DNA of 64,000 nucleotides, taken from contig DAIDAM010000002.1 of the NCBI GenBank assembly GCA_027310625.1, forward strand, positions 65,123 to 129,122, given 5' to 3'. A program made the translations under genes and the position numbers. The notes beneath the pieces were generated by a model. The model saw nothing but the letters and a program-made list of their open reading frames with translations, was not told the origin of the DNA and did not search any database. This stretch comes from a bacterium. Its GTDB lineage: Bacteria; Patescibacteriota; Minisyncoccia; UBA6257; 2-01-FULL-56-20. This document shows positions 3,291 through 43,824 of the stretch, in pieces; position 1 is the first letter of the stretch; every line of letters starts with the position of its first letter.

Positions 3291-5189
3291 ATGGAACAAT
3301 CACCTTCAAAAATTAGAAATTTTGTTGTCATAAGTCATATCGACCATGGGAAAAGCACTTTAGCCGACCGCTTTTTGGAAATCACGGGCACGGTGGAGGC
3401 GCGCCGCATGAAACCGCAGTATCTTGACCAACTTGAACTTGAAAGGGAACGCGGTATAACGATAAAGATGGCGCCTGTCAGGATGATTTATCATCCTGAC
3501 CGCGGAACAACGCGGAAAGACACGCGGAATGACGCAGGAAGTAATCTGTTGGAGGAGTATATTCTCAACCTGATTGATACTCCAGGGCACAGCGATTTTT
3601 CATACGAGGTTTCCCGCGCGCTCGCGGCCGTGGAAGGTGCAATACTCCTCGTTGACGCCACAAAGGGAATTCAAGCGCAGACACTTTCCAATTTTCGCGC
3701 CGCTAAAAAGGCGGGGCTCAAAATAATAGGCGCGGTCAACAAAATTGACCTCAACCCGCCCCGCGCGGGCGAATCGGCGCTGCTTCTCGCGGAACTTATC
3801 GGCGTTCCGGAAAAAGAAATTTTCAGGATTTCCGGAAAAACCGGCGAAGGAGTGCGGGACTTGCTTGATGCCGTTGTGGAACGGGTTCCGCCGCCCCGAA
3901 AGTCCGCGGAAAATTTTTCCCGGGCGCTGATATTCGACTCGCTCTACGACGACCATAAAGGAATAATTGCTTTCGTCCGGTTTTTCGACGGTTCTTTGAG
4001 TTCGGGAAACGAAGCGGAGCTTTTGGCTTCAAGAACAAAATTCCGCGTGAAAGAGTCGGGATATTTTTCTCCGCAGTTCAGGCCGGCTTCTTCGCTTTCC
4101 GGCGGCGAGATAGGATACGTGGCGACGGGATTGAAAGAGCCGTCGCTCGTGAAAATCGGCGATACTATCGTAGCGCGGAATCACGCAGACGGCACGCGGA
4201 ATTACGCGGAAAAAGTTCGGCGAGATTCTGCGTCAAGTCCGCGTCAGTCGGCGTCGTTGGTGTTGCCGGGCTACAAGGAGCCGTCGCCGGTGGTTTTCGT
4301 TTCGCTTTATCCCGACAGCGGAACGCAGTTCGAGGACTTGAAAAAAGCGATGGAGCGCCTGCGCCTAACCGATTCTTCGCTTTCGTTTGAGCAGGACTCG
4401 AGCGAGGCGCTGGGACGCGGTCTCAAGGCCGGATTTCTCGGCCAGCTCCACTTCGAGATAACGGCGAGCCGGCTGGAAAGGGAATTCGGGGTGAAATTCA
4501 TCGCGAGTTTTCCGTCGGTCGCCTACAGAGTTAAACTGAAAGGAAAGACGTCGGTTATAAAAGACCCCAACAATTTCCCGGACGACCCCGACGAAGTTTT
4601 ACAGCCAATGATGGGCGTGGAGATATTTTCGCCCGCGGATTACGTCAGCCAGATACTGGGCTTGAAGGAAAAGTTTCACATAGAGGTTTTGGAAATAAAA
4701 AACATCGGCAACAATGTCGTGATTTCGTCCAAGATGCCGCTCATCGAGCTTACGCGCAATTTTGACGACAGAATCAAATCGGTTTCCTCAGGATTCGCTT
4801 CTTTCAGCTATGAAATTTACGGAGAGGAGCCGGCGAAAGTCGAAAAAATGGAAATTCTGGTCAACGGCGAGCCGGTTTCGGCGCTGACGAGAATCGTTTT
4901 CAAGGACGAAGCGGAAACGGAAGCGCGCGCCACAGTGGAGCGCCTGAAGGAACTCCTGCCGAAGCAGCAGTTCGCCCAGGCGATTCAGGCAAAAGTTCGC
5001 GGGCGGATAACCGCAAGGGAAACCATTCCGGCGATGAAAAAACTGCTCGGCAATTTCGGCAAAACCGGCGGCGACAGGACGCGGAAAATGAAGCTTTGGA
5101 AAAAACAAAAGGAGGGCAAGAAAAAACTGAAGGGTATGTCGCGCGTCTCGGTTCCAACCGAGGTTTTTCGCGACCTTTTGAAGAAGTAG
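3291..5189 (+). CDS. lepA: Elongation factor 4 (LepA)
   Basis: IRNFVVISHIDHGKSTLADRFLE...LIDTPGHSDF; C-terminal LepA tail GKTGGDRTRKMKLWKKQKEGKKKLK. Contains a roughly 25-aa in-frame insert RRDSASSPRQSAS encoded by a palindromic mini-element. Confidence 0.9.
   Translation: MEQSPSKIRNFVVISHIDHGKSTLADRFLEITGTVEARRMKPQYLDQLELERERGITIKMAPVRMIYHPDRGTTRKDTRNDAGSNLLEEYILNLIDTPGHSDFSYEVSRALAAVEGAILLVDATKGIQAQTLSNFRAAKKAGLKIIGAVNKIDLNPPRAGESALLLAELIGVPEKEIFRISGKTGEGVRDLLDAVVERVPPPRKSAENFSRALIFDSLYDDHKGIIAFVRFFDGSLSSGNEAELLASRTKFRVKESGYFSPQFRPASSLSGGEIGYVATGLKEPSLVKIGDTIVARNHADGTRNYAEKVRRDSASSPRQSASLVLPGYKEPSPVVFVSLYPDSGTQFEDLKKAMERLRLTDSSLSFEQDSSEALGRGLKAGFLGQLHFEITASRLEREFGVKFIASFPSVAYRVKLKGKTSVIKDPNNFPDDPDEVLQPMMGVEIFSPADYVSQILGLKEKFHIEVLEIKNIGNNVVISSKMPLIELTRNFDDRIKSVSSGFASFSYEIYGEEPAKVEKMEILVNGEPVSALTRIVFKDEAETEARATVERLKELLPKQQFAQAIQAKVRGRITARETIPAMKKLLGNFGKTGGDRTRKMKLWKKQKEGKKKLKGMSRVSVPTEVFRDLLKK
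4182..4256 (+). repeat. Palindromic mini-element (ACGCNGA arm + TCNGCGT arm) inserted in frame in lepA
   Basis: acgcagacggcacgcggaattacgcggaaaaag...ttctgcgtcaagtccgcgtcagtcggcgtcg. Shares CGTCAAGTCCGCGTCAGTC with the cca and 23S copies. Confidence 0.6.
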
Positions 5190-6510: not shown

Positions 6511-6746
6511 TTGTAGCAAGGCTCAAGCTTCTCTTTGCAGAATGCTGTAGGTGCTTCGCAAAATCCATAGCCGCCTCCGCTTCCAAAAGGTTTCGGGCCA
6601 AAAAGACCATGAAAAAAGATAAAGCATATATCCGTTTTGGTAATTTTAAGGGAGCAACTACTCGAGGCTGTTTTTGTATTGGGCAAAATCTCAAAATTTC
6701 TGAATATATAGCGACAAGCTAAAATATTTTTCCAAGATTTTTCGAG

Positions 6747-6771
6747 AAAGCCCAGTACAATCTGGGCTTTC
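6747..6771. terminator. Perfect hairpin gaaagcccag-tacaatc-tgggctttc upstream of the ABC-F gene
   Basis: 9-bp stem and 7-nt loop, with T-rich sequence on both sides. Confidence 0.3.
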
Positions 6772-6792
6772 TTAATTATTAACAAAAAAATC

Positions 6793-8253
6793 ATGATCAT
6801 CATAAAAAATCTAACGAAAAATATTTTAGGCGAAACTCTTTTTGAAGAAGTGTCTTTTGTGTTGCAAAAAGGAGATAAGGTTGGCCTTGTCGGACCGAAT
6901 GGTTGCGGAAAATCTACGCTTTTGAAAATCATCCTTGGTGAAATTGAAGCTGACAGCGGCGATGTTCGAGTTGAACATGAAAATATCGGGTACTTGTCCC
7001 AAGAGATGCCTTTCAAAAGCGATGAAACAGTAGAGAGTTTTTTGTCCGCTTCTGAAAATCCAAAAGCAAAAACCGCCCTTGAAAAGGTTGGGCTTGGAAA
7101 TATCTTGCACAACATTGCGGTCAATAAACTTAGCGGTGGCCAAAAAACTCGACTATCTCTTGCAAAAATTTTATTGAACAAACCAAGCGTTTTGCTTCTT
7201 GACGAGCCGACAAACCATCTTGATTTGAAAGGATTGGAATGGTTAGAGAATTTCATACGCGATTTTAGAGGCGGTGTTTTGATTGTCTCTCACGACCGCC
7301 GTTTGCTTGATAATTCCGTCAATAAAATTCTTGAGATTGATTCGGTCAATCATAAATTTGCTGAATATGTTGGCGGATATACCGAGTATATGATTGAAAA
7401 AGAAAAGAAATTGGCTAAATGGGAAGACGAATATCAACGACAGCAAAAAGAAAAGCGGCGTCTTGAACTTTGGCTCGCACTTAAGCGGCAAGAAGCGCAT
7501 ATTCATCCTGATCCGGCGAAAGGCAGAATGATTCGAGCAAAGGAAAAATTTTTGCAGCGTGAAATTTATGACAAAGAAATTGCTCGACCAAAAAGCCAGA
7601 AAAAGATAAATAGTTTGGAACTCAAGGGCGAAGCAGCTTCTGCAAAACTCGTTGTGCGAGCCAAAAATATCGCAAAGAGTTTTCCCGGAAAGCAGCTGCT
7701 CCGTGGAATTAGTTTTGAATTGCGCGGCAGAGAGCATGTTTTATTGGCTGGAGATAATGGTTCAGGGAAAACTACTTTGCTCAAAATTCTCACAGGAGAA
7801 TTACAGCAGGACAGCGGAGAATTTAAGCTTGGCGAAAATGTCCGTTTTGGCTATTTCGCGCAAGAGCATGAAATTCTAAATCTCGACAAAACGGTCATGG
7901 ACGAATTTCTAAGTACCGACCGCTTACTTAATTCGTCCAGAAATCCGCGCTCGATTCTTGGTGCTTTTCTCTTTGGCGGTCAAAACGCGTTCAAGAAAAT
8001 TTCGAGTTTGAGCTTTGGTGAGCGAGTGCGCCTCATTTTCGCCAAGCTAACAAATCAAGAAAACGAGCTTCTTATTCTTGACGAACCGACCAATCATCTC
8101 GATATCCAATCGCGAGAGGTTATCGAGGACGCGCTTCTTGGATACAAAGGAGCAATCCTTGTCGTGTCTCACGACAGGTATTTCCTTGATAAAATTTCCG
8201 TAAATCGAATGCTCACGATTCAAAATGGAATTATCAAGGAAAAACTTGTATAA
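6793..8253 (+). CDS. ABC-F family ATPase with two ABC domains and no TMD; translation-factor or ribosome-protection type
   Basis: Two Walker A sites (GPNGCGKST, GDNGSGKTT), two LSGGQ-like signatures and two Walker B sites (LLLDEPTNHLD, LILDEPTNHLD), separated by a charged linker of about 75 aa. Gene GC is clearly lower than its neighbours. Confidence 0.8.
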   Translation: MIIIKNLTKNILGETLFEEVSFVLQKGDKVGLVGPNGCGKSTLLKIILGEIEADSGDVRVEHENIGYLSQEMPFKSDETVESFLSASENPKAKTALEKVGLGNILHNIAVNKLSGGQKTRLSLAKILLNKPSVLLLDEPTNHLDLKGLEWLENFIRDFRGGVLIVSHDRRLLDNSVNKILEIDSVNHKFAEYVGGYTEYMIEKEKKLAKWEDEYQRQQKEKRRLELWLALKRQEAHIHPDPAKGRMIRAKEKFLQREIYDKEIARPKSQKKINSLELKGEAASAKLVVRAKNIAKSFPGKQLLRGISFELRGREHVLLAGDNGSGKTTLLKILTGELQQDSGEFKLGENVRFGYFAQEHEILNLDKTVMDEFLSTDRLLNSSRNPRSILGAFLFGGQNAFKKISSLSFGERVRLIFAKLTNQENELLILDEPTNHLDIQSREVIEDALLGYKGAILVVSHDRYFLDKISVNRMLTIQNGIIKEKLV

Positions 8254-12051: not shown

Positions 12052-12492
12052 ATGACTAGGGATCTTTTCGGTTATTTTGCGGATGCACTCGGGCCGGCGG
12101 GGGTGGCGCATGAACTTTTCGAGGAGGCCTCCAAACTCGTCTTCAAGGACACGGACGATGCAAGCGTCAGGGCGGCTTGCATCCTACTTGTCATTGCCCA
12201 AAAGAGATTCGAGAAATCTCTTGCGGAGGTGGATTCCATCGCTACAGACATGCAGTCCGAGGCGCTCGGTTTGTCGGCTGATCTCGAGCGCAGAGTGGAG
12301 CACAGCACCGAACTTCTACGGATGCTCGTCGCTTACACAAGTTACCTCGAGAGAATGCTGAGCGGAAAAGAAGTTGATCAAAGAGAGCTCGGCGGAAAGC
12401 GGGAAGAAGATTTCGCTGCCGACATCAAGAAGGGCTGTGAATGCCTGTGGCGTTGTCTTGAAGGGTCCACAGGCGTCAAGATGGTTGCATGA
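12052..12492 (+). CDS. Hypothetical protein; doubtful GC-rich ORF
   Basis: 146-aa ORF in a GC-rich noncoding-looking stretch; no recognisable domain. Confidence 0.25.
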   Translation: MTRDLFGYFADALGPAGVAHELFEEASKLVFKDTDDASVRAACILLVIAQKRFEKSLAEVDSIATDMQSEALGLSADLERRVEHSTELLRMLVAYTSYLERMLSGKEVDQRELGGKREEDFAADIKKGCECLWRCLEGSTGVKMVA

Positions 12493-12641
12493 ACGAATTC
12501 ACATCTGCATGAACAGTCGCCGTGGCCAGAAGAATTCCGGAGTGGCCTAACTCTCCCTCCCCGGGCCCCCGGAACCCCCGATGACCATTGCGGCTGACTA
12601 GCAGCTTCCGGCTCTTCTCCTGATCAGGGCCGGTTGTTTTG

Positions 12642-12680
12642 GGCTACGCGGCGCGGCGAGCAAAGCGTAGCCTTTTTTTT
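12642..12680 (+). terminator. Rho-independent terminator
   Basis: ggctacgc-ggcgcggcgagcaaa-gcgtagcc followed by tttttttt. Confidence 0.55.
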
Positions 12681-12691
12681 GTAAAAAATTG

Positions 12692-12835
12692 GGTATACCC
12701 CGTAGGAAACGATGAGAAAACATTAAATTTTGAATCAAAACTAAACTTGTATTAATATGGAAATAGTCCCGGAACTTAAACGCCCTTTCTGATATTTGCG
12801 GAAAATATTTAATTTCCTACGGGGTATAAACTTAT
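12692..12835. repeat. Palindromic element of about 145 bp with 17-nt terminal inverted repeats GGTATACCCCGTAGGAAA / TTTCCTACGGGGTATAAAC
   Basis: Direct reading of both strands; lies just upstream of a second element and the pheS start. Confidence 0.5.
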
Positions 12836-12844
12836 TTCAATGAA

Positions 12845-12964
12845 TCCCGTTAGAGACAATAAGCAAATGCTTTTCATGAATAACTTTCAATTCCCCAAAA
12901 TGGTCGTTTTGCCGCATGCGGCGGGCGCTACGGTTGTCTAAAGACAACCTGTCTCTAACGGGAT
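12845..12964. mobile_element. MITE-like element, CCCGTTAGA family copy 1, ending at the pheS start codon
   Basis: ATCCCGTTAGAGACA...TGTCTCTAACGGGAT termini, with the pheS ATG (12963) immediately after CGGG. Same termini as the copies at 34501-34624 and 45899-45978. Confidence 0.6.
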
Positions 12965-14006
12965 GGAAATAGAGAAAATAAAGAAAGAAATCGTTTTGGA
13001 AATGGACAACGCCGCCGATTCGGCGGCAGTGGAAAAATTGCGCATCAAATATCTCGGCAGAAACGGGGAAATAAATTCGCTTTTCAAAAAACTGAAGGAT
13101 TTGCCGGTTGCCGAGCGGAGAAAAATCGGGCCGAAACTTCAATCGCTGAAGAGCGAACTGGGAGCGCTGTTTTCAAACAGGTTGGAGGTAAGCAAGAAAA
13201 CGAGCGTTGCGGCAAGCGTGGATTTGACAGCCCCCGCGAAAAAAGTGAGCAAGGGGCACCTTCATCCCTTGACGCTTGTTGACGCCGAAATCCGCCGCAT
13301 TTTTCTCGGGTTGAACTTTTCCGTTGTTGAAGGTCCCGAGGTGGAAAGCGAATACTACAACTTTGACGCGCTCAACGTTCCGGCGAACCACCCGGCAAGG
13401 GAAATGTGGGACACGTTCTGGCTTAAACAAGAGGCCAGAGACAAGAGACCAGAGACAAAATTACTATTGCGAACTCATACTTCTCCGGTGCAGATACGCT
13501 ACATGGAGAAAAACAATCCGCCGTTTCAAATCATAGTTCCCGGAAAAGTTTTCCGATACGAGGCGACGGACGCAAGCCATGAGGTTAATTTTTATCAACT
13601 CGAAGGTTTGATGGTTGGGAAAAATGTCAGTCTGGCGAATTTCAAATTCGTCGTCGAGGAATTTTTCAAAAAATTTTTCAGGGGACAAAAAATAGAATTC
13701 CGCTACCGGCCTGGATATTTCCCGTTCACCGAGCCGAGCGTAGAGGTGATTATAAAATTGCCCGCCCACGGCGGGGCCCTGCCCGACGGCGGGCGTGGCG
13801 CCTCGGGCGGAGAAAACAGATGGCTGGAGGTGATGGGCGCAGGAATGGTTCATCCGAAAGTTTTCGAGTATGCCGGCTACAATCCCCGCGACTGGCAGGG
13901 ATTCGCTTTCGGAGTCGGCATCGACCGACTGGCGATGATTAAATACAAAATCCCTGACATCAGAATGTTTTACTCGGGCGATTTGAGATTCATAAAACAA
14001 TTCTAA
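12963..14006 (+). CDS. pheS: Phenylalanine--tRNA ligase alpha subunit
   Basis: LLRTHTSPVQIRYM...FRYRPGYFPFTEPSVEV...WLEVMGAGMVHP class II motifs. Contains an EARDKRPETK insert from a tandem AGAGACA x3 tract and a GC-rich palindromic insert HGGALPDGGRGASGG. Confidence 0.9.
   Translation: MEIEKIKKEIVLEMDNAADSAAVEKLRIKYLGRNGEINSLFKKLKDLPVAERRKIGPKLQSLKSELGALFSNRLEVSKKTSVAASVDLTAPAKKVSKGHLHPLTLVDAEIRRIFLGLNFSVVEGPEVESEYYNFDALNVPANHPAREMWDTFWLKQEARDKRPETKLLLRTHTSPVQIRYMEKNNPPFQIIVPGKVFRYEATDASHEVNFYQLEGLMVGKNVSLANFKFVVEEFFKKFFRGQKIEFRYRPGYFPFTEPSVEVIIKLPAHGGALPDGGRGASGGENRWLEVMGAGMVHPKVFEYAGYNPRDWQGFAFGVGIDRLAMIKYKIPDIRMFYSGDLRFIKQF
13435..13459 (+). repeat. Tandem heptamer (AGAGACA/AGAGACC) x3 in frame in pheS
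   Basis: ccagagacaagagaccagagacaaa; 21 nt equals 7 codons. Confidence 0.5.
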
Positions 14007-14728: not shown

Positions 14729-16795
14729 ATGAAGTTCTCATACTCATTGATTAAAAAGTTGTCGCCGCGGCTGCCGAATATTTCCAAAGCGGCAGAAACG
14801 CTCAACCTTTACTCGTTTGAAGTTGAAGACGCGGCGGGCGATTTGTTGGACATCGCTCTGCCGGCGAACAGATACTCCGACGCCGCTTCGCATCTCGGAA
14901 TCGCGCGCGAACTTTCGGCGGCGCTCGGAAAGCCGCTCAAAAATCCCGTAAAGCTCATCGTCAATCCGCCGAGCGACCAAGGATTGATCGAGGTGGAGGT
15001 GGAAAATAAAGCCGCCTGTCCGCGGTATGCCGCGCGTGTTTTTGAAATCAAAAAAATGCCGGCGACTCCGTTGTGGATGAAAAATGTTTTGAAAACCTGC
15101 GGCGTAAAATCAATAAACGGCGTCGTCGACCTGATGAATTACGTGATGCTTGAAGTCGGACAGCCGCTCCACGCTTTCGATTTCGATAAAATCGCGGACA
15201 AACGCGGACGGCACGCGGATAAACGCGGAAAGTTTCAGCGTAATTCAGCGTTAAGTCAGCATAAGTCAGCGTCAATTATTGTGAGGAAAGCCAAAAAAGG
15301 CGAGCGAATCGAGACGCTCGATGGCCAACGTCTCGAACTCGATGCGAATGACATTGTTATCGCCGACGCTTCGCGCGCCATTGCAATCGCCGGCGCAAAA
15401 GGCGGAGCGAATTCCGGCGTCGACGGGAAGACGAGGCGGATAGTCGTGGAGGCGGCGAATTTCGACCCCGTGAGGATTTTCAAAACCTCGCGGCGGCTGA
15501 AGCTCGCGACAGACGCGAGCATAAGGTTCTCGCACGGCTTGAGTCCCGCGCTCGTCGATTTCGGAATGGACAGGGTAACGGAGCTTCTCAAAAAATCCGG
15601 CGCGAAACTTGTTGATTCCGTTGATGTTTACCCGCGGCGCGCAGGCGACGAAATTATAGAGTTTGACGCGGAGAAGTACGAAAATTTCATCGGTGCCGCC
15701 GTTTCACCGGCAAAAGCGAAGAAAATTTTTGCGAGATTGTCTTTCGCCGTTGTGAAGGCACGTACCAACGCGGATAAAAAATCAGCATCAATCAGTAGAA
15801 ATCAGCATAAATCAGCGTTCTTAGTCAGAGTTCCCGCCTGGAGGACGGACATTGAAAATCCGGAGGACTTGATGGAAGAAATCGCGCGGTTCGTCGGCTA
15901 CAACAAGCTGAAACCGCAGGCGCCCGCCATTTCTCTCAAGCCGGCGGAAGAAGAAGACATAGTCGTTTTCAAAGACAGAATGAGAAAATTTTTGTCGGGC
16001 GCCGGACTGAACGAGGTTTACAACCATTCTTTTTCTGCCGAAGGCGGAAGCGCGGCAGTGGAACTTGAAAATCCGATAAGCTCCGAGTTTAAAAATCTCC
16101 GCCAGTCGCTTGCGGGCGGATTGATTAAGAATGTAAAAGACAACGGCAGATTCTTTGACGAAGTGAGAATTTTTGAAATCGGAAAAGTTTTCAAAAAAAC
16201 GAAGAGCGGCGTCGGCGAAAAATTGAATCTCGGCGTCGCCATCGGCGCGAGAAAAAAGTCGTTTATCCGCGAAGTCAAAGGCATCGTTGACGATTTGCTC
16301 AAGGGTCTCGGCGTCGCCGATTTTTACATGGCGGAATCGGGAGCGGGAAATCTTCAAATAGAAATTGATAAAAAAATAATCGGAAACATAAAAATTGTGG
16401 ATGTCGGAAAAGGCCTGCCCGCCGGCAGGCAGGGGTGGGTTGCGACCGTAGGCGAAATGAATCTTGACGCGATTCTGCCGATTGTTGAAGAAGAGCGAGC
16501 TTTCAAGCCGCTGCCGAAATATCCGGCGGTGATGCGCGACGTTTCCATTCTTCTTCCCGCGGACGTAAGAATCGGAAGAGTTCTTGAGGTTATTGACGGC
16601 GCTTCGTCGGAAATCGCGGAGAACGTTGATTTGGTTGACGAGTATGTTGACAAGAAGTTCGACGGGAAACAGAGTTTAACATTCAGAATTATTTTCCAAT
16701 CGGAGGAAAGAACGCTCACGGACGCGGAAGTGAATCGCGATCTTTCGAAAATAATCGCGGCGCTCAAAAAATCTTTCAAGGCGGAAATCAGATAA
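14729..16795 (+). CDS. pheT: Phenylalanine--tRNA ligase beta subunit (short form)
   Basis: Position directly after pheS; tRNA-binding N-terminus, B3/4 and B5 regions, C-terminal FDGKQSLTFRIIFQSEERTLTDAEVN. Two in-frame palindromic mini-element inserts. Confidence 0.85.
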   Translation: MKFSYSLIKKLSPRLPNISKAAETLNLYSFEVEDAAGDLLDIALPANRYSDAASHLGIARELSAALGKPLKNPVKLIVNPPSDQGLIEVEVENKAACPRYAARVFEIKKMPATPLWMKNVLKTCGVKSINGVVDLMNYVMLEVGQPLHAFDFDKIADKRGRHADKRGKFQRNSALSQHKSASIIVRKAKKGERIETLDGQRLELDANDIVIADASRAIAIAGAKGGANSGVDGKTRRIVVEAANFDPVRIFKTSRRLKLATDASIRFSHGLSPALVDFGMDRVTELLKKSGAKLVDSVDVYPRRAGDEIIEFDAEKYENFIGAAVSPAKAKKIFARLSFAVVKARTNADKKSASISRNQHKSAFLVRVPAWRTDIENPEDLMEEIARFVGYNKLKPQAPAISLKPAEEEDIVVFKDRMRKFLSGAGLNEVYNHSFSAEGGSAAVELENPISSEFKNLRQSLAGGLIKNVKDNGRFFDEVRIFEIGKVFKKTKSGVGEKLNLGVAIGARKKSFIREVKGIVDDLLKGLGVADFYMAESGAGNLQIEIDKKIIGNIKIVDVGKGLPAGRQGWVATVGEMNLDAILPIVEEERAFKPLPKYPAVMRDVSILLPADVRIGRVLEVIDGASSEIAENVDLVDEYVDKKFDGKQSLTFRIIFQSEERTLTDAEVNRDLSKIIAALKKSFKAEIR
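15198..15277 (+). repeat. Palindromic mini-element copy (ACGCGGA arm + TCAGCGT arm) in frame in pheT
   Basis: gacaaacgcggacggcacgcggataaacgcggaaag + tttcagcgtaattcagcgttaagtcagcataagtcagcgtcaatt, translated ADKRGRHADKRGKFQRNSALSQHKSASI. Confidence 0.6.
15762..15838 (+). repeat. Second mini-element copy (ATCAGCA/ATCAGCG heptamer tract) in frame in pheT
   Basis: aaaaatcagcatcaatcagtagaaatcagcataaatcagcgttcttagtcag, translated KKSASISRNQHKSAFLV. Confidence 0.55.
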
Positions 16796-17233: not shown

Positions 17234-18868
17234 ATGCGATTCATCATTCCCGAAGAAATATCGGACATTTCAAAAAAGCTCAAGAAAGCCGGTTTCAAGG
17301 TGTACCTCGTCGGCGGGTGCGTTCGCGACCTTTTGACGAACGTAGTGCCGCCCCTTCGGGGCGAGCCTCGCCCTGACGGGCGGGAACCGAAGGACTGGGA
17401 CATAGCGACGGACGCGAAGCCGGATGAGGTGCAGAAAATTTTTCCCGACAGCGTCTACGAAAACGAATTCGGCACCGTTTTGGTGAAACTAAAACCGCTG
17501 ACCGGCGCAGATTTACCCGCCAAAGTTTCCGAAGGAAATTCAGGCGGGCAGGCGCAGAAAAACGCAGACACGTTTCCGCGTCAATCCGCGTCAAGTCCGC
17601 GTCAGTCCGCGCTGAATGTGGTGGAAATCACCACGTTCCGTTCCGAGGGAAAGTACACCGACAAGCGCCATCCCGACGAAGTGAGATTCGCGGAAACGAT
17701 TGAAGAGGATTTGTCGCGCCGCGATTTCACGATCAACGCCATCGCCCTCAACATCGGCGGCGTCGCGCAAAAACTGGTTGACCCGTTCAACGGGCAGGAA
17801 GATTTGAAAAAAGGAATTGTCCGCGCCGTCGGTAATGCCGAAGAAAGATTCAACGAAGACGCATTACGCCTTATCAGAGCGGTACGCTTCGCTTCCGAGC
17901 TTGGATTTTCCGCCGGAGGCGGACCGGTCTCGGGCTGGCAGATTGAGTTCAACACCAGACGCGCGATAGAAAAGTTCGCCGGGCTTTTGGAAGCGATAGC
18001 GAAGGAAAGGATACGCGACGAATTTACGAAGATAATAATGTCCGACGGAGCGGCGGGAGGAATTATTCTTCTTGAAGAGCTCGATTTGCTCCGCTACGTT
18101 TTGCCGGAACTTCGCGAGGGCATCGGCGTCGGCCAAAACAAACATCACATTTACACCGTTTTCGAGCACAACGTGAAATCTTTGGATTACTCGGCGAAGA
18201 AAAATTATTCCCTCGAAGTTCGTCTCGCATCCCTGCTTCACGACCTCGGCAAACCGAAAGCAAAAAGAGGCGAAGGACCGGACTGCACTTTCTACGGACA
18301 CGAAGTCGTCGGCGCCAAAATGGCCGTGAGAGCTTTAGAACGTTTGCGTTTTTCGAAAGACGTAATTGAAAAAGTAGTCCATCTCGTCCGCTACCACATG
18401 TTTTACTACAACGTCGGCGAGGTGAGTGAAGCGGGAGTGCGTCGTTTTATCGCCCGCGTCGGTCCGGAAACCGTTCCGGATTTATTGAAACTTCGCGAAG
18501 CGGACCGCATCGGCTCCGGCGTGCCGAAAGCCGTCCCTTACAAAATGCGCCACCTTCTTTTCATGATTGAAAAGGTTAAAAACGACCCCGTTTCGCCGAA
18601 GATGCTCAAAGTGAAAGGCGACGACGTGATGAAAATTCTCGGAATCGAGCCAGGCCCGCGCGTCGGCTACATACTTTCCGCGCTTCTTGAAGAAGTTCTT
18701 GACGACCCTTCCAAAAACGATTCGCCGCATCTTGAAAGGCGCGTCCGCGAGCTCGGAAAATTGAGCGATTCCGAACTGAACGGAATTTCAAAAAAGGCGA
18801 AAGAAAAAAAGGATGAATTCCAAGCGGGAATTGAAGAAGAAATGAAAAAAAAGTATTATGTCCGCTAA
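17234..18868 (+). CDS. cca: CCA tRNA nucleotidyltransferase / poly(A) polymerase family with HD domain
   Basis: YLVGGCVRDLL head motif and HD domain (LLHDLGK, HE...RYHM). Carries an in-frame insert of about 35 aa ending TFPRQSASSPRQSAL from a mini-element. Confidence 0.85.
   Translation: MRFIIPEEISDISKKLKKAGFKVYLVGGCVRDLLTNVVPPLRGEPRPDGREPKDWDIATDAKPDEVQKIFPDSVYENEFGTVLVKLKPLTGADLPAKVSEGNSGGQAQKNADTFPRQSASSPRQSALNVVEITTFRSEGKYTDKRHPDEVRFAETIEEDLSRRDFTINAIALNIGGVAQKLVDPFNGQEDLKKGIVRAVGNAEERFNEDALRLIRAVRFASELGFSAGGGPVSGWQIEFNTRRAIEKFAGLLEAIAKERIRDEFTKIIMSDGAAGGIILLEELDLLRYVLPELREGIGVGQNKHHIYTVFEHNVKSLDYSAKKNYSLEVRLASLLHDLGKPKAKRGEGPDCTFYGHEVVGAKMAVRALERLRFSKDVIEKVVHLVRYHMFYYNVGEVSEAGVRRFIARVGPETVPDLLKLREADRIGSGVPKAVPYKMRHLLFMIEKVKNDPVSPKMLKVKGDDVMKILGIEPGPRVGYILSALLEEVLDDPSKNDSPHLERRVRELGKLSDSELNGISKKAKEKKDEFQAGIEEEMKKKYYVR
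17552..17611 (+). repeat. Palindromic mini-element copy in frame in cca
   Basis: ggcgcagaaaaacgcagacacg + tttccgcgtcaatccgcgtcaagtccgcgtcagtccgcg. Confidence 0.6.
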
Positions 18869-25672: not shown

Positions 25673-25827
25673 AAATGAGCATGCATTAAGGGCTAATGGT
25701 GGATGCCTAGACATCAAAAGGCGACGAAGGACGCGGCGTAGCTGCGATAAGCTTCGGTGAGGTGCGTAGCAACCGATGACCCGGAGATTTCCGAATGGAG
25801 CAATCCAACACAGTAAACCTGTGTTGT

Positions 25828-25969
25828 CGTGCCTCACTATCGTTCGGCACTATTGCTATCGCGCGAATGGGCGAATTATTACGAACATACGAATTATTAA
25901 ACTGATTCGTAAGTTCGTATCCTATTCGTAAATTCGTGCGATAGAAGTGGCGAGCGGCAGCGAGGCACG
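25828..25969. repeat. 23S palindromic insertion, family A copy 1 (CGCGCGAATnnGCGAAT...TTACGAAC.TACGAAT...TTCGTAAATTCGTGCGATAGAAGTGGCGAGCGGCAGCGAGGCAC)
   Basis: Flanked by complementary GTGCCTCAC...GCGAGGCAC; interrupts conserved 23S sequence before GAAACATCTCAGTA. Confidence 0.6.
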
Positions 25970-26049
25970 ACGCAAACCCGCTGAAGTGAAACATCTCAGT
26001 AAGCGGAGAAAAAGAGAACAATCAAGTCCTCTGTTTCACATATCCCATC

Positions 26050-26235
26050 AATTTGACAGAGCGAATCTTGAGACAGATTCGCGGCGCGAGGAGCGCAGTG
26101 TGCCGGTAGGCACATAAGCGACGAGCAACAAAGAAGCTGGCCAAGATTCGCCTGCCCGAAAGGGAAACGAAAAATTGGCCGATTTCTGTGTTGCTCCTCG
26201 TCGACGTAGCTTTGGCTACAATCTCCTCGTTGCGC
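26050..26235. repeat. 23S insertion, family C copy 1 (GATTCGCGGCGCGAGGAGCGCAGTGT...ATAAGCGACGAGCAACAAA...GTTGCTCCTC)
   Basis: Second copy at 30650-30900. Confidence 0.5.
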
Positions 26236-26341
26236 CTTGAAGTCGTCTCATTCTTTCGCTTTCAAATTTGACGGTATATGTGAAATAGAGGACGTTATTC
26301 CCTCAGTAGCGGCGAGCGAAAAGGGAAGAGCCGAAACTAAT

Positions 26342-26475
26342 CGTGCCTCACCGCCGTTCAGCACTCCATCGCGCGAATAGCCGAATTTTTACGAACGTAC
26401 GAATGAAACCAATTCGTATGTTCGCGCCGATTCGTAAATTCGTGCGATAGAAGTGGCGAGCGGCAGCGAGGCACG
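26342..26475. repeat. 23S family A copy 2
   Basis: cgtgcctcaccgccg...ttcgtaaattcgtgcgatagaagtggcgagcggcagcgaggcacg. Confidence 0.6.
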
Positions 26476-26507
26476 ATTGGGGTAACAAGAGAGAAACGCT
26501 CTTAAAG

Positions 26508-26580
26508 TGTCACGTGTCATGGGTCATGTGTCAGGATTTTTCTTGATACTTGATACTTGACACCTGATACTTTGAGGTGG
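26508..26580. repeat. Tandem heptamer tract in the 23S (GTGTCAC/GTGTCAT/GGGTCAT/GTGTCAG then CTTGATA x3)
   Basis: Direct reading. Confidence 0.5.
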
Positions 26581-26813
26581 AGAAGTTACAAAATTTTTGC
26601 CTAGCTGAATCTGCTGGAAAGCAGAACCAAAGACGGTGAAAGTCCGGTAGGCGAAAGGCAAAAATCTTCTTAGTTTCCCGGCGCACATAATTTATGTGCG
26701 CAGCCGAGCACAAAACTTGTTTTGTGCTCTGGTTTATCTTCAGTACTTCGAGGCAAAAAAACTTCGAAGGAATTAGCGAGTACTATCTCGCAAGGCTAAA
26801 TACTTTTGATGAT

Positions 26814-26850
<37 letters not shown>

Positions 26851-26904
26851 CAGGCCGGTGAGGCCGTTGAAATAGAACCTGAAACCATTTGCCTACAAGG
26901 ATTC

Positions 26905-27033
26905 GGAGCTCTCCGCTATCGCTTTGAGCTCCTCTATCGCGCGAATATGCGAATTCTTACGAATGTACGAATTCGTAAATTCGTATTTTTTTCGTAATTC
27001 GTGCGATGGGGAACTCCGAGCGGTAGCGAGGAG
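26905..27033. repeat. 23S family A copy 3
   Basis: ctatcgcgcgaatatgcgaattcttacgaatgtacgaattcgtaaattcg...ttcgtgcgatgggg. Confidence 0.55.
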
Positions 27034-27140
27034 TGACGAAGTGCCTATTGAAGAATGAGCCAACGACTTATGGTGCATTGCTTGTGTAAGTACCTTTAAG
27101 GGATGTACGCGCAGGGAGACCGAGTCTTAATAGGGCGTAT

Positions 27141-27266
27141 CGTGTCTCACTATTGTTCGACACGTTATCGCGCGAATAAGCGAATAATTACGAACTTACG
27201 AATTCGTATATTCGCAACCGATTTGTAAATTCGTGCGATAGAAGTGGCGAGCGGCAGCGAGGCACG
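27141..27266. repeat. 23S family A copy 4
   Basis: cgtgtctcactattg...gcgcgaataagcgaataattacgaacttacgaattcg...ttcgtgcgatagaagtggcgagcggcagcgaggcacg. Confidence 0.6.
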
Positions 27267-27607
27267 AAAAGCAGTGCATCATAGACCCGAAGCCGGATGA
27301 GCTTGCCTTGGCCAGGTTGAATTTCGCAGAAATGCGGGAGGAGGACCGAACTGGTGGGTTGTTCAAAACCCTCGGATGAGCTGAGGCAAGGAGTGAAAAG
27401 CTAATCGAATTCGGTAATAGCTGGTTCTCTCCGAAATAGTTTTAGGACTAGCGGTGAAAGTTACCTGTGGGGGTAGAGCTACTGGATGATTCGTAAAGGC
27501 CGAAAGGCCGGCGAATCAATCAAACTCCGAATACCGCAGGCCATATTTCACTAGTCAGACTGTGGGGGCTAAGCTCCATGGTCAAAAGGGAAACAGCCCA
27601 ACGCTCA

Positions 27608-27720
27608 ACTTCGTTTCGCTTCATCGCGCGAACAAGCGAATTTTACGAATGTACGAATCTGTATTCGTAAGTTCGTAATTTATTCGTAAATTCGTGCGAT
27701 GGATGCGAGCGGAAACGAGC
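27608..27720. repeat. 23S family A copy 5
   Basis: catcgcgcgaacaagcgaattttacgaatgtacgaatctgtattcgtaagttcgtaatttattcgtaaattcgtgcgatgg. Confidence 0.55.
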
Positions 27721-27954
27721 ATCAGATCATCATCTAAGGCCCCTAAATGCGCGCTAAGTGTTAAAGGCAGTCGTAATCCATAGACAGATAGGAGGTTGGC
27801 TTAGAGGTAGCCATCCTTTAAAGAGTGTGTAACAACTCACTATTCGACTCGCCTCGCTTCGCGAGAGCGAAGCTGGGTGGGACCGCGGCGCCGAAAATGT
27901 ACCGGGGCTAAGCGCGCTGCCGAAGATATGAATCGTTCGCTTCGCTCACTGTTG

Positions 27955-28040
27955 CAATCCGAACAATCCGAATTCCATCCGAATGTTCCGAATATTCGGG
28001 GCATTCGGATGCATTCGTAGGTTCGGATTGCGGTAGCGAG
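27955..28040. repeat. Family B copy 2 inside the 23S
   Basis: caatccgaacaatccgaattccatccgaatgttccgaatattcggggcattcggatgcattcgtaggttcggattgcgg. Confidence 0.55.
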
Positions 28041-28587
28041 CGGAGCGAGCGGTGGTAGGAGAGCATTCCCGTTGCGCCGAAGGAAGATCCGCGAGGACTT
28101 CTGGAGCGGCGGGAAGAGAGAATGTTGGCATGAGTAACCACAATCCTAATGAGAAATTGGGACCCCGAAAATCCAAGGTTTCCGTGGCACTGGCAATCAA
28201 CCACGGGTTAGTCGGCCCTAAGGCGATGGCGAAAGCCGCAGCCGATGGACAGACGGTTAATATTCCGTCACTCCCGCAGTTTTCAATGGAGGGACGAGAT
28301 TCAGTAGATGGAGCGCCTTATTGGTTTGGCGTCCTTGCGCGAGGATTCCCGGCTGGAAAATCCGTCGGGATGCGTTCAATCGCAAATCCCAGCAAAAAGG
28401 CAACTCCGATGTTTTCATTGGGGGAGTTCGTCGAGCGGATCTCCAAGAAAAACTTCTAAGGTTAAAATTGCGGAATCCGTACCGTAAACCGACACTGGTG
28501 GATAGGGCGAGAAGCCCAAGGGGAACGAGTGATTCGCCGTTAAGGAACTCGGCAAAAAAGCGGCCGTAAGTTAGCGATAAGGCCTGC

Positions 28588-28660
28588 CTTGTTCGGATGT
28601 CGGACTTCGGACGTCAGATTTCGGATAATCTGGCATCTGATTTCTGAAATCCGATATCTG
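28588..28660. repeat. Palindromic TCGGATG/TCAGATT heptamer tract in the 23S
   Basis: ttcggatgtcggacttcggacgtcagatttcggataatctggcatctgatttctgaaatccgatatctgaac; the two halves are reverse complements. Confidence 0.5.
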
Positions 28661-29290
28661 AACTAGGCCGCAGCGAAAGTTTTCCTGGCGACTGTTTACC
28701 AAAAACACAGCTCCCTGCGAACTCGCAAGAGGATGTATAGGGGGTGACGCCTGACCGATGCGAGAAGGTCAAGACTGCCTGTCGCATCTCACTAAGGTGA
28801 GATGCTCTGATATTCATTGAAATTAGTTCGCCGAAGGCGAACGAAAATTAATAGAAATTATTGGTGATAAATTTCGCGAGCGAAGCGAGCAAATTTCTAT
28901 AAATTTCAGCGAAGCGAATATCAAAAGCACCGAACTTTAGTGAGGTGCGGCGGAGTGGTTCAAGCCCTCGTCAATGTCAGCAATAACTATAATTGTTCTA
29001 AGGTAGCGCAGTTCCTTTCCGGGTAAGTTCCGGAGCGCACGAATGGCGTAACGACTGGGAAACTGTCTCGACGGCGAGCTCGGTGAAAATGCGATTCCCG
29101 TGAAGACGCGGGATACCTGCAGCGGGACGGAAAGACCCCGGAAGCTTTACTGCAGCTTGGTATTGGCTTTAAGGTCTTGATGCGTAGCGTAGTGGGGAGG
29201 GTTTGAAGCTCCGATTTCGGTCGGAGTGGACCCGACAATGAAACACCCATCTTTAGGACTTTAAATTCTAACCATACCAGAACCCCTCTT

Positions 29291-29390
29291 TGCGCATAAG
29301 CGCAAAGCGCAGAAGGACGCAGAATGAACGCGGACTAACGCAGAATTTTTTTCAGCGTGGGTCTGCGTAAAGTCAGCGTGAGTCAGCGCT
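29291..29390 (+). repeat. Composite palindromic mini-element (ACGCAGA arm + TCAGCGT arm) in the 23S, copy a
   Basis: gcgcagaaggacgcagaatgaacgcggactaacgcagaa + tttttttcagcgtgggtctgcgtaaagtcagcgtgagtcagcgc, closed by cctctttg ... caaagagg. Confidence 0.6.
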
Positions 29391-29630
29391 TTGTTTACTC
29401 GTGAACAAAGAGGGGAAGCTGGTGAGGGACAGTGCTTGGCGGGCAGTTTCAATGGGGCGTTGTCCTCCTAAAGAGTAACGGAGGAGTCTATTAAGGTCGG
29501 CTTGGCCCGGATGGAAACCGGGCTGGACGCGTAAAGGCAGAAGCCGGCTTAACTGCAAGACCTACAAGTCGCGCAGATGCGAAAGCAGAGCTTAGTGACC
29601 CGACCACTATGTCAGTGCTTCGCACTGACC

Positions 29631-29708
29631 GCAGAATAACGCGGAACGAACGCAGAACTACGCAGAACTTTCAGCGTAAGTCAGCGTCAAGTCCGCGTGA
29701 GTCCGCGG
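29631..29708 (+). repeat. Composite palindromic mini-element in the 23S, copy b
   Basis: cgcagaataacgcggaacgaacgcagaactacgcagaac + tttcagcgtaagtcagcgtcaagtccgcgtgagtccgcgg. The right arm is near-identical to the lepA and cca copies. Confidence 0.65.
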
Positions 29709-29917
29709 CCAATGCGGAGCATTGGCTCTTCATAGAAAGGTGGGAGACACCGGATAAAAGCTACTCCGGGGATAACAGGCTGGTGAGATCCGAGAGTCCC
29801 TATCGACGATCTCGCTCGGCACCTCGATGTCGGCTCATCCTAGCGCGGGGCTGGAGAAGGTCCCAAGCGTTTGGCTGTTCGCCAATTAAAAGGATACGTG
29901 AGCTGGGTTCAGACCGT

Positions 29918-30585
29918 CAAAATAACTGAACCGAGGACATCAAGCACGGCGGCTCGTCGCCGCAAGGCGACCCGAATAAATCGACTCATATCGGTGGAGT
30001 CCTAGCACGGCAACCTGTCATATGCTAGGATAATACCGAGGGAAGTTGCATATGTTGAATCTTTCGTCAACGCAAAAAGCATATTTAGCGGGATTTCTAG
30101 ACGGCGATGGGAGTATCTACGTGCGGCTGAAACCAAATACCGATTACAAGTATGGTTTTCAGGTTGCACCGTACGTTATTCTTTTCCAATCGTCCAAAGA
30201 ACGTAAGAAATTTGAAAAGGTTTGTTCCTTAATTGGTCTCGGATACATTCGAGAAAGAAAGGATAGAATTTTGGAATACACCATCGGCAGGGAAAAAGCA
30301 ATCAAGTTTTTTCTTAAAATGGTGATTCCGTATCTGATTCTAAAAAAGAAGCAAGCAATTCTTACGTTGGAAATCCTGGATATGAAAATGAAAATCAAAA
30401 ACAAGAACGATTTTCAGGCGTTGATGAATAAGATAGATATTTTTCGTAATCTGAATTATTCGAAAAAGCGTAAAAAGCATGTGTTAACCTCGTAGAGACT
30501 ACACGTCGATCCCGAGCACATAAAGCGTTGCGTGCTTCGGTGGTGGTATAGTCCGACACTCTTAGTAATAGGAGATTACAGTATG
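29918..30585 (+). mobile_element. Presumed group I intron in the 23S at the I-CreI-type site (between CGT and CGTGAGACAG), carrying a LAGLIDADG ORF
   Basis: Conserved exon sequence GGGTTCAGACCGT | ... | CGTGAGACAGGTCGGTCCC is reconstituted if 29918-30585 is removed; the insert ends in G and the 5' exon ends in T. Confidence 0.6.
30046..30495 (+). CDS. LAGLIDADG homing endonuclease, single-motif homodimeric type
   Basis: KAYLAGFLDGDGSIYV motif; 149 aa; AT-rich; located inside the rRNA insert. Confidence 0.85.
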   Translation: MHMLNLSSTQKAYLAGFLDGDGSIYVRLKPNTDYKYGFQVAPYVILFQSSKERKKFEKVCSLIGLGYIRERKDRILEYTIGREKAIKFFLKMVIPYLILKKKQAILTLEILDMKMKIKNKNDFQALMNKIDIFRNLNYSKKRKKHVLTS

Positions 30586-31262: not shown

Positions 31263-31380
31263 AAAAGCTCAATTTCGTATTCGCTTTATCGCTCGAATAA
31301 ACGAATCTTTACGAACATGCGAATTCGTAAGTTCGTATTACTATTCGTAAATTCGTGCGATGATGCGAGTGACGCGAGCA
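31263..31380. repeat. Family A copy 6, directly after the 23S 3' end and before the processing stem
   Basis: atttcgtattcgctttatcgctcgaataaacgaatctttacgaacatgcgaattcgtaagttcgtattactattcgtaaattcgtgcgatgatgcgag. Confidence 0.55.
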
Positions 31381-33421: not shown

Positions 33422-34501
33422 ATGCTTCAGAAATTGAGTTTTAAAGAAATCTTTCTTTCCAAGAACATTTTTTTACCGCTTTCGGTAGTTTTGCTTTTCA
33501 GTCTCGTCGTTTTGTCCAGCATATCGGAAGATCTTTTTTACAGACAGGCCTTATTTATAGCTCTCGGGTTCGTAATTGTTCTCACTTTCAGGAAGTTTGA
33601 TTTTCTGCCGGTTTTAAGACACAGATGGCTGATTACGGGCATTTATGCCGCATCAATATTTTTTCTGGTTTTGGTTCTTCTTATCGGCCCTGATATAAGA
33701 AATGTGAAAAGCTGGCTCGTTCTCGGGCCGATAGGATTCCAGCCGTCCGAAATTGCGAAGGTCGCCTTGATACTTGTTCTTTCTGATTACTTCAGCAGAA
33801 GGCATTTATCTGTCGCTCGCTGGAAAATAATATTTACATCGTTTCTTTTTTTTATCGTGCCCGCCGTTTTGGTTGCCGCCCAGCCGGCGCTCGGCTCCGC
33901 AGCCGTTCTTTTTGTAATTTGGTTTGGATTCCTTCTTTCAAGCGGCTTGCCGCGAAACAGAATACTTCTTTTTTCTGCCGCATTCGTCGTTTTCGGAATA
34001 CTCCTTTGGAACTGGGGATTGAAAGATTATCAAAAAGACAGGATAACCCATTTCTTTTACCCCGAGAAAAACGTTTTGGGGGCGAATTACAGCGTCGTTC
34101 AGTCAAAAGTGGCGATTGGCTCCGCCGGACTTTGGGGAGAGGGGTACAGACAGGGGTCGCAAACACAACTCGGCTTTCTCGCTGAGCCGACAAACGACTT
34201 TATTCTCGCCGCTTTGACGGAGGAGTGGGGGCTTGCGGGCGGACTTTTGACAATAGGAGCGTTTTTCATGCTCATGTTCGGGATAATGAAGACGGCTTCT
34301 GCGGCTGTAAGAAATTTTGACAAGTTCGTCTGTCTTGGGACCGTGATATCTTTGGGAACCCAGTTTTTCCTGAACAGCGGTTCAGCGCTCGGAATCGTTC
34401 CGGTCGTCGGGATACAATTTCCCTTTTTGAGTTACGGGGGTTCGAGTGTTTTGACTAACTTCTTTCTTATAGCTATCATCTCGTCCATTGGTAAAAAATG
34501 A
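33422..34501 (+). CDS. SEDS-family peptidoglycan polymerase (RodA/FtsW)
   Basis: PSEIAKVALILVLSDYFS, GSAGLWGEGY..GSQTQLGFLAEPTNDFILAA, FPFLSYGGSSVLTNF. Confidence 0.85.
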   Translation: MLQKLSFKEIFLSKNIFLPLSVVLLFSLVVLSSISEDLFYRQALFIALGFVIVLTFRKFDFLPVLRHRWLITGIYAASIFFLVLVLLIGPDIRNVKSWLVLGPIGFQPSEIAKVALILVLSDYFSRRHLSVARWKIIFTSFLFFIVPAVLVAAQPALGSAAVLFVIWFGFLLSSGLPRNRILLFSAAFVVFGILLWNWGLKDYQKDRITHFFYPEKNVLGANYSVVQSKVAIGSAGLWGEGYRQGSQTQLGFLAEPTNDFILAALTEEWGLAGGLLTIGAFFMLMFGIMKTASAAVRNFDKFVCLGTVISLGTQFFLNSGSALGIVPVVGIQFPFLSYGGSSVLTNFFLIAIISSIGKK

Positions 34502-34624
34502 TCCCGTTAGAAGCAACTAACCCTTTGTTTTCAGAAAATGCCCTACATTACAAACAAAAAAGCCGATTACAGCTCAAGACAGTTGAATTACGGTCGTCCG
34601 GAGACAACCTGCTTCTAACGGGAT
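34501..34624. mobile_element. MITE-like element, CCCGTTAGA family copy 2, exactly filling the rodA stop / mltG start junction with ATGAT duplicated on both sides
   Basis: aaaaATGAT|CCCGTTAGAAGCA...TGCTTCTAACGGG|ATGATttt. The left ATGA supplies the rodA TGA stop and the right ATGA supplies the mltG ATG. Confidence 0.65.
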
Positions 34625-43409: not shown

Positions 43410-43823
43410 ATGGAGAATACAAAAGAAAAAAAGCAATACGAAGTATCTTTCGTGTCCGCCGACGAGGATGGCGCAAAAAAACTTACCGATTATTTTAGGA
43501 AGTCCGGAGCGGAGATAATTTTTGAAAGCCCGCTTTCGAAAATGCGTCTTGCGCAGCCGATAAACAAAAAAAATGAAGCGTACTTCGGATTTTTGCACCT
43601 GGACGCAGAACCCGAAGAAATCTCGAAGGCCGAAAGACAATTGCGCATTCACCCCGGCGTTTTGAGATTTCTTGTTGTGACTCCGCCCTTGGTCAAACAA
43701 AAAGAGAGGAGTCAATACGAGCCGAGAAAAAGGCAATTTTCCGCCGCTCGACCGGAGAAGAAGCATGTTCCGCATATCAGCAATGAAGCGCTTGAAGAGC
43801 AGCTGAAGGAAATTCTTCAGTAA
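43410..43823 (+). CDS. rpsF: 30S ribosomal protein S6
   Basis: QYEVSFVSADEDG... S6-like N-terminus; position upstream of ssb and rpsR. Confidence 0.7.
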   Translation: MENTKEKKQYEVSFVSADEDGAKKLTDYFRKSGAEIIFESPLSKMRLAQPINKKNEAYFGFLHLDAEPEEISKAERQLRIHPGVLRFLVVTPPLVKQKERSQYEPRKRQFSAARPEKKHVPHISNEALEEQLKEILQ

Positions 43824-43824
43824 C

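Follow-up and report, generated by a model that had tools for sequence, protein, structure and literature searches.

The region upstream of pheS in this patescibacterial genome holds two adjacent palindromic elements, here called E1 and E2, and raises the question of what they are and whether the gene depends on them for its expression. We put a probability of about 0.8 on the reading that they represent two related families of small, non-coding, MITE-like DNA transposons that are widespread in Patescibacteria, and that the region upstream of pheS was hit twice. Neither E1 nor E2 is a regulator of pheS. Apart from a known parent IS, they show every testable trait of a MITE, being short and non-coding, with terminal inverted repeats, target-site duplication, and dispersed copies that differ in presence and absence. 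The initial annotation had likened them to Correia elements, and the likeness to mobile elements of the Correia or MITE type is borne out; both belong to dispersed families with target duplications.

Layout of the region and the empty orthologous sites

In the window (the whole stretch of 64,000 nt that was analysed), an upstream gene of 146 aa is followed by an intrinsic-terminator-like hairpin (12641-12673) and a run of eight T, together covering 12641-12681 of the plus strand. The hairpin folds at -19.2 kcal/mol, an energy that alone is unexceptional (z = -0.65), and it was overlooked by a simple terminator scan owing to its long loop. The terminator had been proposed before and is retained here, as a hairpin and T-run occur at the matching relative position in three orthologous loci (L169, L171 and L173). 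In E1 the arms match perfectly over 16 nt (12694-12709 and 12813-12828) and are 103 nt apart; the E1 18-mer and its partner occur twice in the window against an expectation of 0.01. The perfect arms of E2 measure 15 nt, lie at 12844-12858 and 12950-12964 and are spaced by 91 nt, and the E2 13-mer has five matches in the window with at most two mismatches against 0.83 expected, a number reached in 0 of 100 shuffles. On arm length, chance expectation and shuffles, the two inverted repeats described before pheS in the initial annotation are real and non-random; there are indeed two elements, with boundaries now corrected to 12697-12825 for E1 and 12844-12964 for E2. The further statement that nothing else lies between the terminator and the ATG is not fully accurate, as it misses about 15 nt of native sequence (12829-12843) that separates the elements. 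Folded as single strands, whole E2 copies reach -50.8 and -37.8 kcal/mol (z = -6.5 and -4.9), and strong folding of E1 and E2 follows by nature from their long inverted repeats.

E1 is a MITE-like element of 129 nt with the ends ACCCCGTAGGA...TCCTACGGGGT, recognized by its family, its flanks and its absence from orthologous loci, and entered without a strand. It is flanked by a duplicated dinucleotide AT (12695-12696 and 12826-12827). Its last base, T 12825, forms with the native flank a -10-like box, TATAAAC, at 12825-12831 on the plus strand. The native remnant on the same strand (12829-12843) comprises the end of this box, a 9-nt spacer, the original pheS ATG, and GA, and is colinear with the empty orthologues. 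The original, now orphaned ATG lies at 12840-12842, and the left duplicated dinucleotide GA at 12842-12843. Read from the sequence, this ATG opens an upstream ORF of 33 codons (MNPVRDNKQ...; 12840-12941, plus strand), the TAA stop of which falls in the loop of an inner hairpin, 21 nt 5´ of the pheS ATG. The inner hairpin, GGTTGTC-TAAA-GACAACC at 12932-12949, adjoins the gene-proximal arm of E2 copy 1, a MITE-like element of 121 nt (12844-12964, plus strand) with the ends ATCCCGTTAGA...TCTAACGGGAT, defined by its arms, its family and the orthologous sites. The start codon of pheS (12963-14006, plus strand; Pfam PF01409 and PF02912 on record for the identical protein P0001) consists of the final AT of E2 and the G of the right-hand target copy, and the PheS N-terminus starts at a position equal to that at orthologous loci. 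The left and right duplicated dinucleotides of this copy are unequal (GA versus GG), which counts against our preferred explanation.

The window holds two further E2 copies. Copy 2 (124 nt, 34501-34624, plus strand), found by repeat search, extends exactly from the TGA stop of an FtsW/RodA-family gene to the ATG of a YceG (MltG)-family gene and shares its orientation with copy 1. Copy 3 (45900-45978, minus strand), which the initial annotation did not include, is a GC-rich short variant of 79 nt within a GT39 glycosyltransferase gene.

An exact look-up of the window PheS gave no record, and a PheS search returned an identical protein followed by orthologues at 73-77% identity. The closest relatives of PheS and of the GT39 protein are labelled Paceibacterota or Liptonbacteria. 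The orthologous loci share the gene order lepA, two small genes, a hypothetical gene, pheS, pheT and cca; BLAST of the window against all examined loci for synteny gave no close match. In L169/L170 the site is empty and reads T8-ATCGCTATTTCGATATAAACTTTAGAAAC-ATGGAAATC, and L171/L172 are empty as well. E1 is absent from the orthologous loci. When E1 and one AT, and E2 and one dinucleotide, are removed from the window, the sequence becomes T8-GTAAAAAATTGGGTATAAACTTATTTCA-ATGGAAATAGAG, colinear with the empty sites, and the reconstructed order is terminator, TATAAAC, 9 nt, ATG. TATAAAC also precedes the pheS ATG in the orthologues, by 9-10 nt in L169/L170 and by 20 nt in L173/L174. From the alignment of empty sites it follows that E1 split a conserved TATAAAC, which was rebuilt at 12825-12831, and that E2 split the ATG at 12840-12842, which was rebuilt at 12963. 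A model of recombination at an AT core predicts the wrong empty site for E2 and was rejected. The locus L173/L174 reads ...GATATAAAC...AACATGG|ATCCCG...(another E2 subtype)...CGGGAT|GGAAACC; the same pheS ATG has, by this comparison, been struck independently by E2 in another lineage.

The E2 and E1 families and their target sites

The E2 family was sampled by scanning one genome per GTDB species for ATCCCGTTAGA and TCTAACGGGAT separated by 85-115 nt, which gave at least 119 loci and, among the matches listed, an analysis set of at least 131 copies. Membership of the sample required exact 11-nt ends and a set range of gap and size, so that divergent members escape it. Hosts among the matches listed are Saccharibacteria, many lineages of Parcubacteria/Paceibacterota, Levyibacteriota, Kerfeldbacteria and a few non-CPR bins, the taxon labels being those of the records, with contamination of some bins possible. 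The same 11-nt ends were seen in bins of Omnitrophota, WOR-3 and Sedimentisphaerales (L016, L056, L058, L074, L076) and in bins labelled ‘Gammaproteobacteria’ (L042, L047); the copies in L016 and L056 lie at TAAA/TTTA sites and not at ATG. Copies in bins outside Patescibacteria could stem from horizontal spread or from bin contamination.

The 131 listed copies are 107-134 nt long with highly variable, mostly AT-rich interiors, and the junctions of nearly all of them read ATGR|ATCCCG...CGGGAT|GR or its reverse complement. Oriented by the longer downstream ORF, 118 of the 131 have an ORF of at least 60 aa running from the regenerated ATG, and 109 one of at least 100 aa; the ORFs behind the listed copies belong to 101 unrelated protein clusters. 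The ATG in the left flank is kept in 114 of the 131 listed copies, and the 2-bp flanks are identical in 102. The codon after the regenerated ATG is RAN in 82 of 88 listed copies (93%), against a background of about 37% derived from ORF starts in the same loci, a crude ORF set. From this excess at the second codon we take the target of E2 to be ATGRA and not ATG alone. Tandem arrays occur with ATGA between the units. Examples of two or three elements split only by ATGA/TCAT are found at 5897-6280 of L012, 5471-5712 of L057, 7672-7897 of L015 and 6502-6730 of L092, and an array variant has the ends ATCCCGTAGT...ACTACGGGAT. Elements are very dense in some genomes, and L173 has E2 at the start codons of both pheS and pheT (L173/L174, about 4040-4166).

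E2 has a preferred direction. One arm is followed by ...CCT/ACCT, which corresponds either to the inner hairpin or to a bulge of 4 nt in an extended stem, and this arm is gene-proximal in 75 listed copies and gene-distal in four (p = 5e-18). The initial annotation had suggested searching for further copies upstream of genes in a consistent orientation, and such copies exist, with 75 of 79 classifiable listed copies pointing the same way. This suggests that the end with the inner hairpin must face the gene, and it keeps a functional role of E2 open. An orientation bias of 95% is not accounted for by symmetric cut-and-paste and counts against our preferred explanation. BLAST of E2 interiors gave similarity too weak to be used for orientation, and an internal third ‘GGGAT’ motif, considered as a decoy of the left arm, was dismissed, as it occurs in 27 of 118 listed copies and in neither copy 1 nor copy 2. 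The inner hairpin itself is present in 52 of 118 listed copies with 37 different stem sequences, and at the mirror position in 18. The 14-bp terminal stem is preserved in 107-118 of 118 listed copies, and its positions 12-14 are variable yet complementary in 107-113 of 118. Such compensatory variation is unlike what sequence-specific binding of a transposase alone would predict and likewise counts against the preferred explanation; E1 and E2 could act or move as folded single strands. Mismatches of the G.T and A.C types are equally frequent in the stems of the listed copies, and the advantage of the sense fold over the antisense fold is on average only 1 kcal/mol (p = 0.03), so that there is no clear signature of an RNA strand. 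The palindromy of E2 is maintained at the DNA level or for both strands. Lengths and stop positions of the upstream ORFs are not conserved across the listed copies.

For E1, metagenomes were scanned for ACCCCGTAGGA and TCCTACGGGGT with a gap of 92-122 nt. The scan gave 49 loci, mostly from groundwater, and 35 non-redundant, AT-rich members; with about 35 such relatives the first element is not unique, a matter on which the proposal of the initial annotation had been made to depend. The flanks carry identical 2-mers in 24 of 35 members (AT 18, AA 3, AC 2, GT 1), and the insertion site is T|NN|A, mostly TATA, with T before the element in 30 of 35 and A after it in 32. A TA-duplicating reading of E1, of the IS630 or Correia type, was rejected on two grounds: duplications of AA, AC and GT occur, and the alignment with orthologues fits the AT model only. 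The ends of the two families, ACCCCGTAGGA and ATCCCGTTAGA, align ungapped and in the same register with 8 of 11 bases shared. Together the families span 107-144 nt, with interiors that are not conserved and no conserved ORF. Both were absent from the viral contigs scanned.

On this evidence E1 and E2 both insert at 5´-T|NN|A-3´ and duplicate the central NN. As the first base of each element is A and the last is T, TNNA is restored at both junctions, which accounts for the tandem arrays and for the survival of the motif that was hit. At pheS, E1 entered the TATA of the native TATAAAC, the box being rebuilt at the right junction, and E2 the start codon, AT|GG|A, its terminal AT and the duplicated G giving a new ATG with the frame unchanged. 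The elements are presumably moved by a DDE-type transposase acting in trans. We searched the examined loci for a parent element as pairs of inverted-repeat ends 0.16-6 kb apart; in about 1.4 Mb of such loci there was no autonomous element or transposase with E1 or E2 ends, end pairs spaced by 0.6-4 kb surrounded no transposase, and the ORFs enclosed by end pairs were ordinary genes between neighbouring mini-elements. The preference of E2 for start codons might be thought a product of selection against other insertions. Since E1, with the same architecture, sits at TATA in spacers, survival bias alone cannot explain E2 at ATGRA.

The GT39 gene with copy 3 lies on the minus strand at 45605-47638. 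The copy is flanked by ATAG|..|AGA, is in frame and free of stops, and adds 27 residues (DPVRSS...SNGI) that are absent from 26 of the 28 closest GT39 homologues. Two homologues (P0125 and P0129) have different insertions at the same E-ID-K site, and the ATAGA site therefore seems to have been hit repeatedly. That copy 3 is in frame and stop-free argues that the element may be translated and not removed from the RNA. Where ORFs are prolonged in the upstream direction through the right arm (L036, L042, L070, L071, L118, and L124 at 6535-7842), their translations contain ...SNGM, and an ORF called from an upstream start can therefore absorb the element, for example as HPVRDSKHSNG in an MnmA-like ORF. 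Absorption of this kind probably gives rise to wrong N-termini in the annotation of CPR genomes.

The window contains other repeats as well. A separate palindromic family is built of ACGCGGAnnn units followed by inverted nnGTC(C/A)GCGT and occurs at 4174-4253, 15193-15271 (inside pheT), 17553-17611 and 50529-50608, as well as inside a 23S rRNA insertion at 29308-29388 and 29630-29707. Four of its copies lie in frame within long ORFs and encode peptides such as NADKRG..FQR.SA.SQ.KSA. A related repeat with a 10-nt period is found at 15767-15828 and 43812-43873. The 23S rRNA gene (25676-30030) measures 4355 nt against a model of 2925 nt, and its insertions and flanks (25676-30030, 31284-31361) are packed with direct and inverted repeats of the ATTCGTAA/TTACGAA type (families D1, D2, D6, D7, D9 and D13).

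Expression of pheS and alternative explanations

A sigma-70 promoter scan of 12400-13100 scored no promoter-like site, and E2 copies 1 and 2 of the window have no -10-like sequence, copy 1 being GC-rich upstream of the hairpin module. Genes in the window mostly lack Shine-Dalgarno motifs, and several of them have TATAAT-like boxes 6-9 nt 5´ of the ATG (e.g. at 17234, 49220, 51662 and 57732-58259). This spacing suggests that leaderless or very short-leader mRNAs may be the norm in this organism, and TATAAAC would then be a putative promoter element of pheS. The initial annotation had held that any promoter and ribosome-binding signal of pheS must lie inside the elements. Neither part is supported: the native TATAAAC box is conserved in the empty orthologues and was merely regenerated by E1, and in a genome largely without Shine-Dalgarno motifs there is no ribosome-binding site to supply.

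We infer that pheS is still transcribed from the regenerated TATAAAC, giving a nearly leaderless RNA that would start at about 12837-12840 and include all of E2. Two routes might rescue translation. Ribosomes on the upstream ORF could open the E2 stem and re-initiate 21 nt past its stop, or a nuclease could cleave the 15-bp stem and leave a short-leader mRNA, in the way that RNase III acts on Correia hairpins (PMC10969869). Neither route appears to be a designed feature, as the lengths of the upstream ORFs are not conserved across the E2 family. One intriguing possibility, which we nevertheless regard as quite improbable, is that E2 is a portable module for translation initiation or regulation that passes ribosomes over the foot of the hairpin to the true start codon. 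The 14-15-bp stem has the orphaned AUG, or the stop codon of the upstream gene, at its 5´ foot and the regenerated AUG at its 3´ foot, and the transfer would be a bacterial counterpart to ribosome shunting or to the hop in T4 gene 60. If true, this could explain both the 95% orientation bias and the superphylum-wide spread in lineages largely without Shine-Dalgarno motifs.

The other explanations differ in what they make of the orientation bias and of the folded structure. The elements could be Correia-like donors of an outward promoter, of a stabilizing 5´ hairpin or of a ribosome-loading signal, on which pheS would then depend. Correia elements are documented as promoter donors (PMC10969869), the orientation of E2 relative to the downstream gene is 75:4 among the listed copies, and the hairpin module adjoins the gene-proximal arm in 52 of 118 of them against 18 with the mirrored arrangement; some members of the AT-rich E2 subfamily have TAAAAT/TATAAT-like strings upstream of the module, and E1 often ends 0-16 nt from a start codon. 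We nevertheless consider this explanation unlikely, as the promoter scan of 12400-13100 was empty, copy 1 is GC-rich upstream of the module, copy 2 lacks a -10-like match, neither the interior of E2 nor the stop position of the upstream ORF is conserved, and pheS has retained its native TATAAAC box. An internal TTGAAT-17-TAATAT in E1 is not conserved among its relatives. The structure could instead point to mobility as a single-stranded hairpin through an HUH (Y1) enzyme, as in REPIN/RAYT or in IS200/IS605 derivatives, in place of a DDE transposase. Taken whole, the element forms a long hairpin (z = -5 to -6.5) with stems that vary by compensatory change while the structure is kept, insertion is orientation-specific and beside a short asymmetric target, GTAG is present in E1 and in the L012 variant, and the examined loci hold no classical parent IS. 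This is clearly improbable when set against the duplicated target dinucleotides on both sides, which insertion of the IS200/IS605 type does not make, the same symmetric junctions in the four reverse-oriented E2 copies, and units of 107-144 nt with long-range terminal repeats in comparison with REP units of 20-40 nt.

Two further readings are less likely still. A structured cis-regulatory RNA, such as a pheS leader or attenuator, a riboswitch or a thermosensor, with a closing stem that hides the start codon, would agree with the position of the A and U of the pheS AUG inside the stem, with three Phe codons within seven residues of the upstream ORF, and with the average advantage of 1 kcal/mol of the sense fold (p = 0.03). 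It is very unlikely: Rfam gave no match at the gathering score or at E <= 10, 101 unrelated gene families lie downstream of the listed copies and the closest pheS orthologues are without the element, target duplications, tandem copies and an in-frame copy within coding sequence occur, the interior and the upstream ORF are not conserved, and G.U is not favoured over A.C. The pheM-like leader peptide to which the three Phe codons might point was rejected separately, as the upstream ORF came into being with the insertion and is not conserved. That the elements are recombination sites of an attC-like (integron) or Xer/dif-like kind, and not transposons, is suggested by the resemblance of GTTAGA/TCTAAC in the ends to the integron core GTTRRRY/RYYYAAC, by a size within the attC range, and by the perfect palindrome centred on AT that the joined ends would form. 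The polarity is however reversed (5´-GTTAGA...TCTAAC-3´ versus 5´-RYYYAAC...GTTRRRY-3´ in attC), the copies stand singly at start codons and do not form cassette arrays, the observed ATGR duplication would not result from crossover at a shared AT, and an integrase was not seen nearby. With the junction structure contradicting both the attC-like and the Xer/dif-like form, this reading was rejected as extremely improbable.

Implications and comparison with known systems

If the transposon reading is correct, Patescibacteria hold at least two related mini-transposon families with ends that regenerate the motif they hit, and one of these homes to start codons (ATGRA) and leaves essential genes such as pheS intact. 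Such a ‘safe-haven’ strategy is not listed among the known behaviours of prokaryotic MITEs. Gene calling in CPR genomes is affected through duplicated ATGs, spurious N-terminal extensions (...SNGM) and in-frame insertions of 27 aa, and the question is raised of how a ribosome starts behind a hairpin of about -50 kcal/mol in a genome with few Shine-Dalgarno sites. The pair ATCCCGTTAGA ... TCTAACGGGAT may further serve as a sequence tag for horizontal transfer among uncultured lineages. In the full-text literature searched and in a 2024 review of prokaryotic MITEs, neither these elements nor MITEs that target start codons are described, an absence that is no proof of novelty; the review does not contain the phrase ‘start codon’ or mention the candidate phyla radiation (PMC10969869).

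The Correia elements of Neisseria (NEMIS/CREE) resemble E1 and E2 in being non-coding sequences of about 100-150 bp with terminal inverted repeats and a 2-bp target duplication, and in being abundant just 5´ of genes, where they are co-transcribed into long RNA hairpins. In Neisseria these hairpins are substrates of RNase III (PMC10969869). Correia elements differ in duplicating TA and in having defined outward promoters and an IHF site, whereas in E2 the duplication is the GR of ATGRA and the start codon is restored, and E1 mostly duplicates AT within TATA, with no promoter-like site in 12400-13100. They are confined to one genus as compared with a superphylum for E1 and E2, and a sequence relationship is absent. 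The Rickettsia palindromic elements (RPE) are, like E2, palindromic and mobile in bacteria with small genomes, with copies that can lie in frame within genes and be translated (PMC10969869). This likeness concerns copy 3 (45900-45978) only and not the copies before pheS; RPE are mostly intragenic, whereas E2 is sited at start codons in 118 of 131 listed copies and has one intragenic copy in the window. MITEs of the ERIC/IRU and RUP/BOX types share the size, the imperfect palindromes, the transcribed intergenic sites and possible effects on mRNA processing, but neither targeting of start codons nor regeneration of the target motif is reported for any of them. REP/REPIN-RAYT units are 20-40 nt long with a 5´ GTAG and no target duplication, in contrast to the 107-144 nt and the duplications of E1 and E2.

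A last resemblance, and a resemblance only, concerns piggyBac and IS1380, the latter being the prokaryotic outgroup of the former (PMC10813416). Another way to write the junctions of E1 and E2 is as a duplication of 4 bp, TNNA, next to ends of the form (T/C)CCCGT, which recalls the TTAA and the CCC... ends of piggyBac; unlike in these systems, no transposase has so far been seen beside E1 or E2 ends in the examined loci. Set against these known elements, what distinguishes the two families is their ATGRA and TATA targets, the way their terminal bases restore the site that was hit, and a distribution that covers a superphylum.
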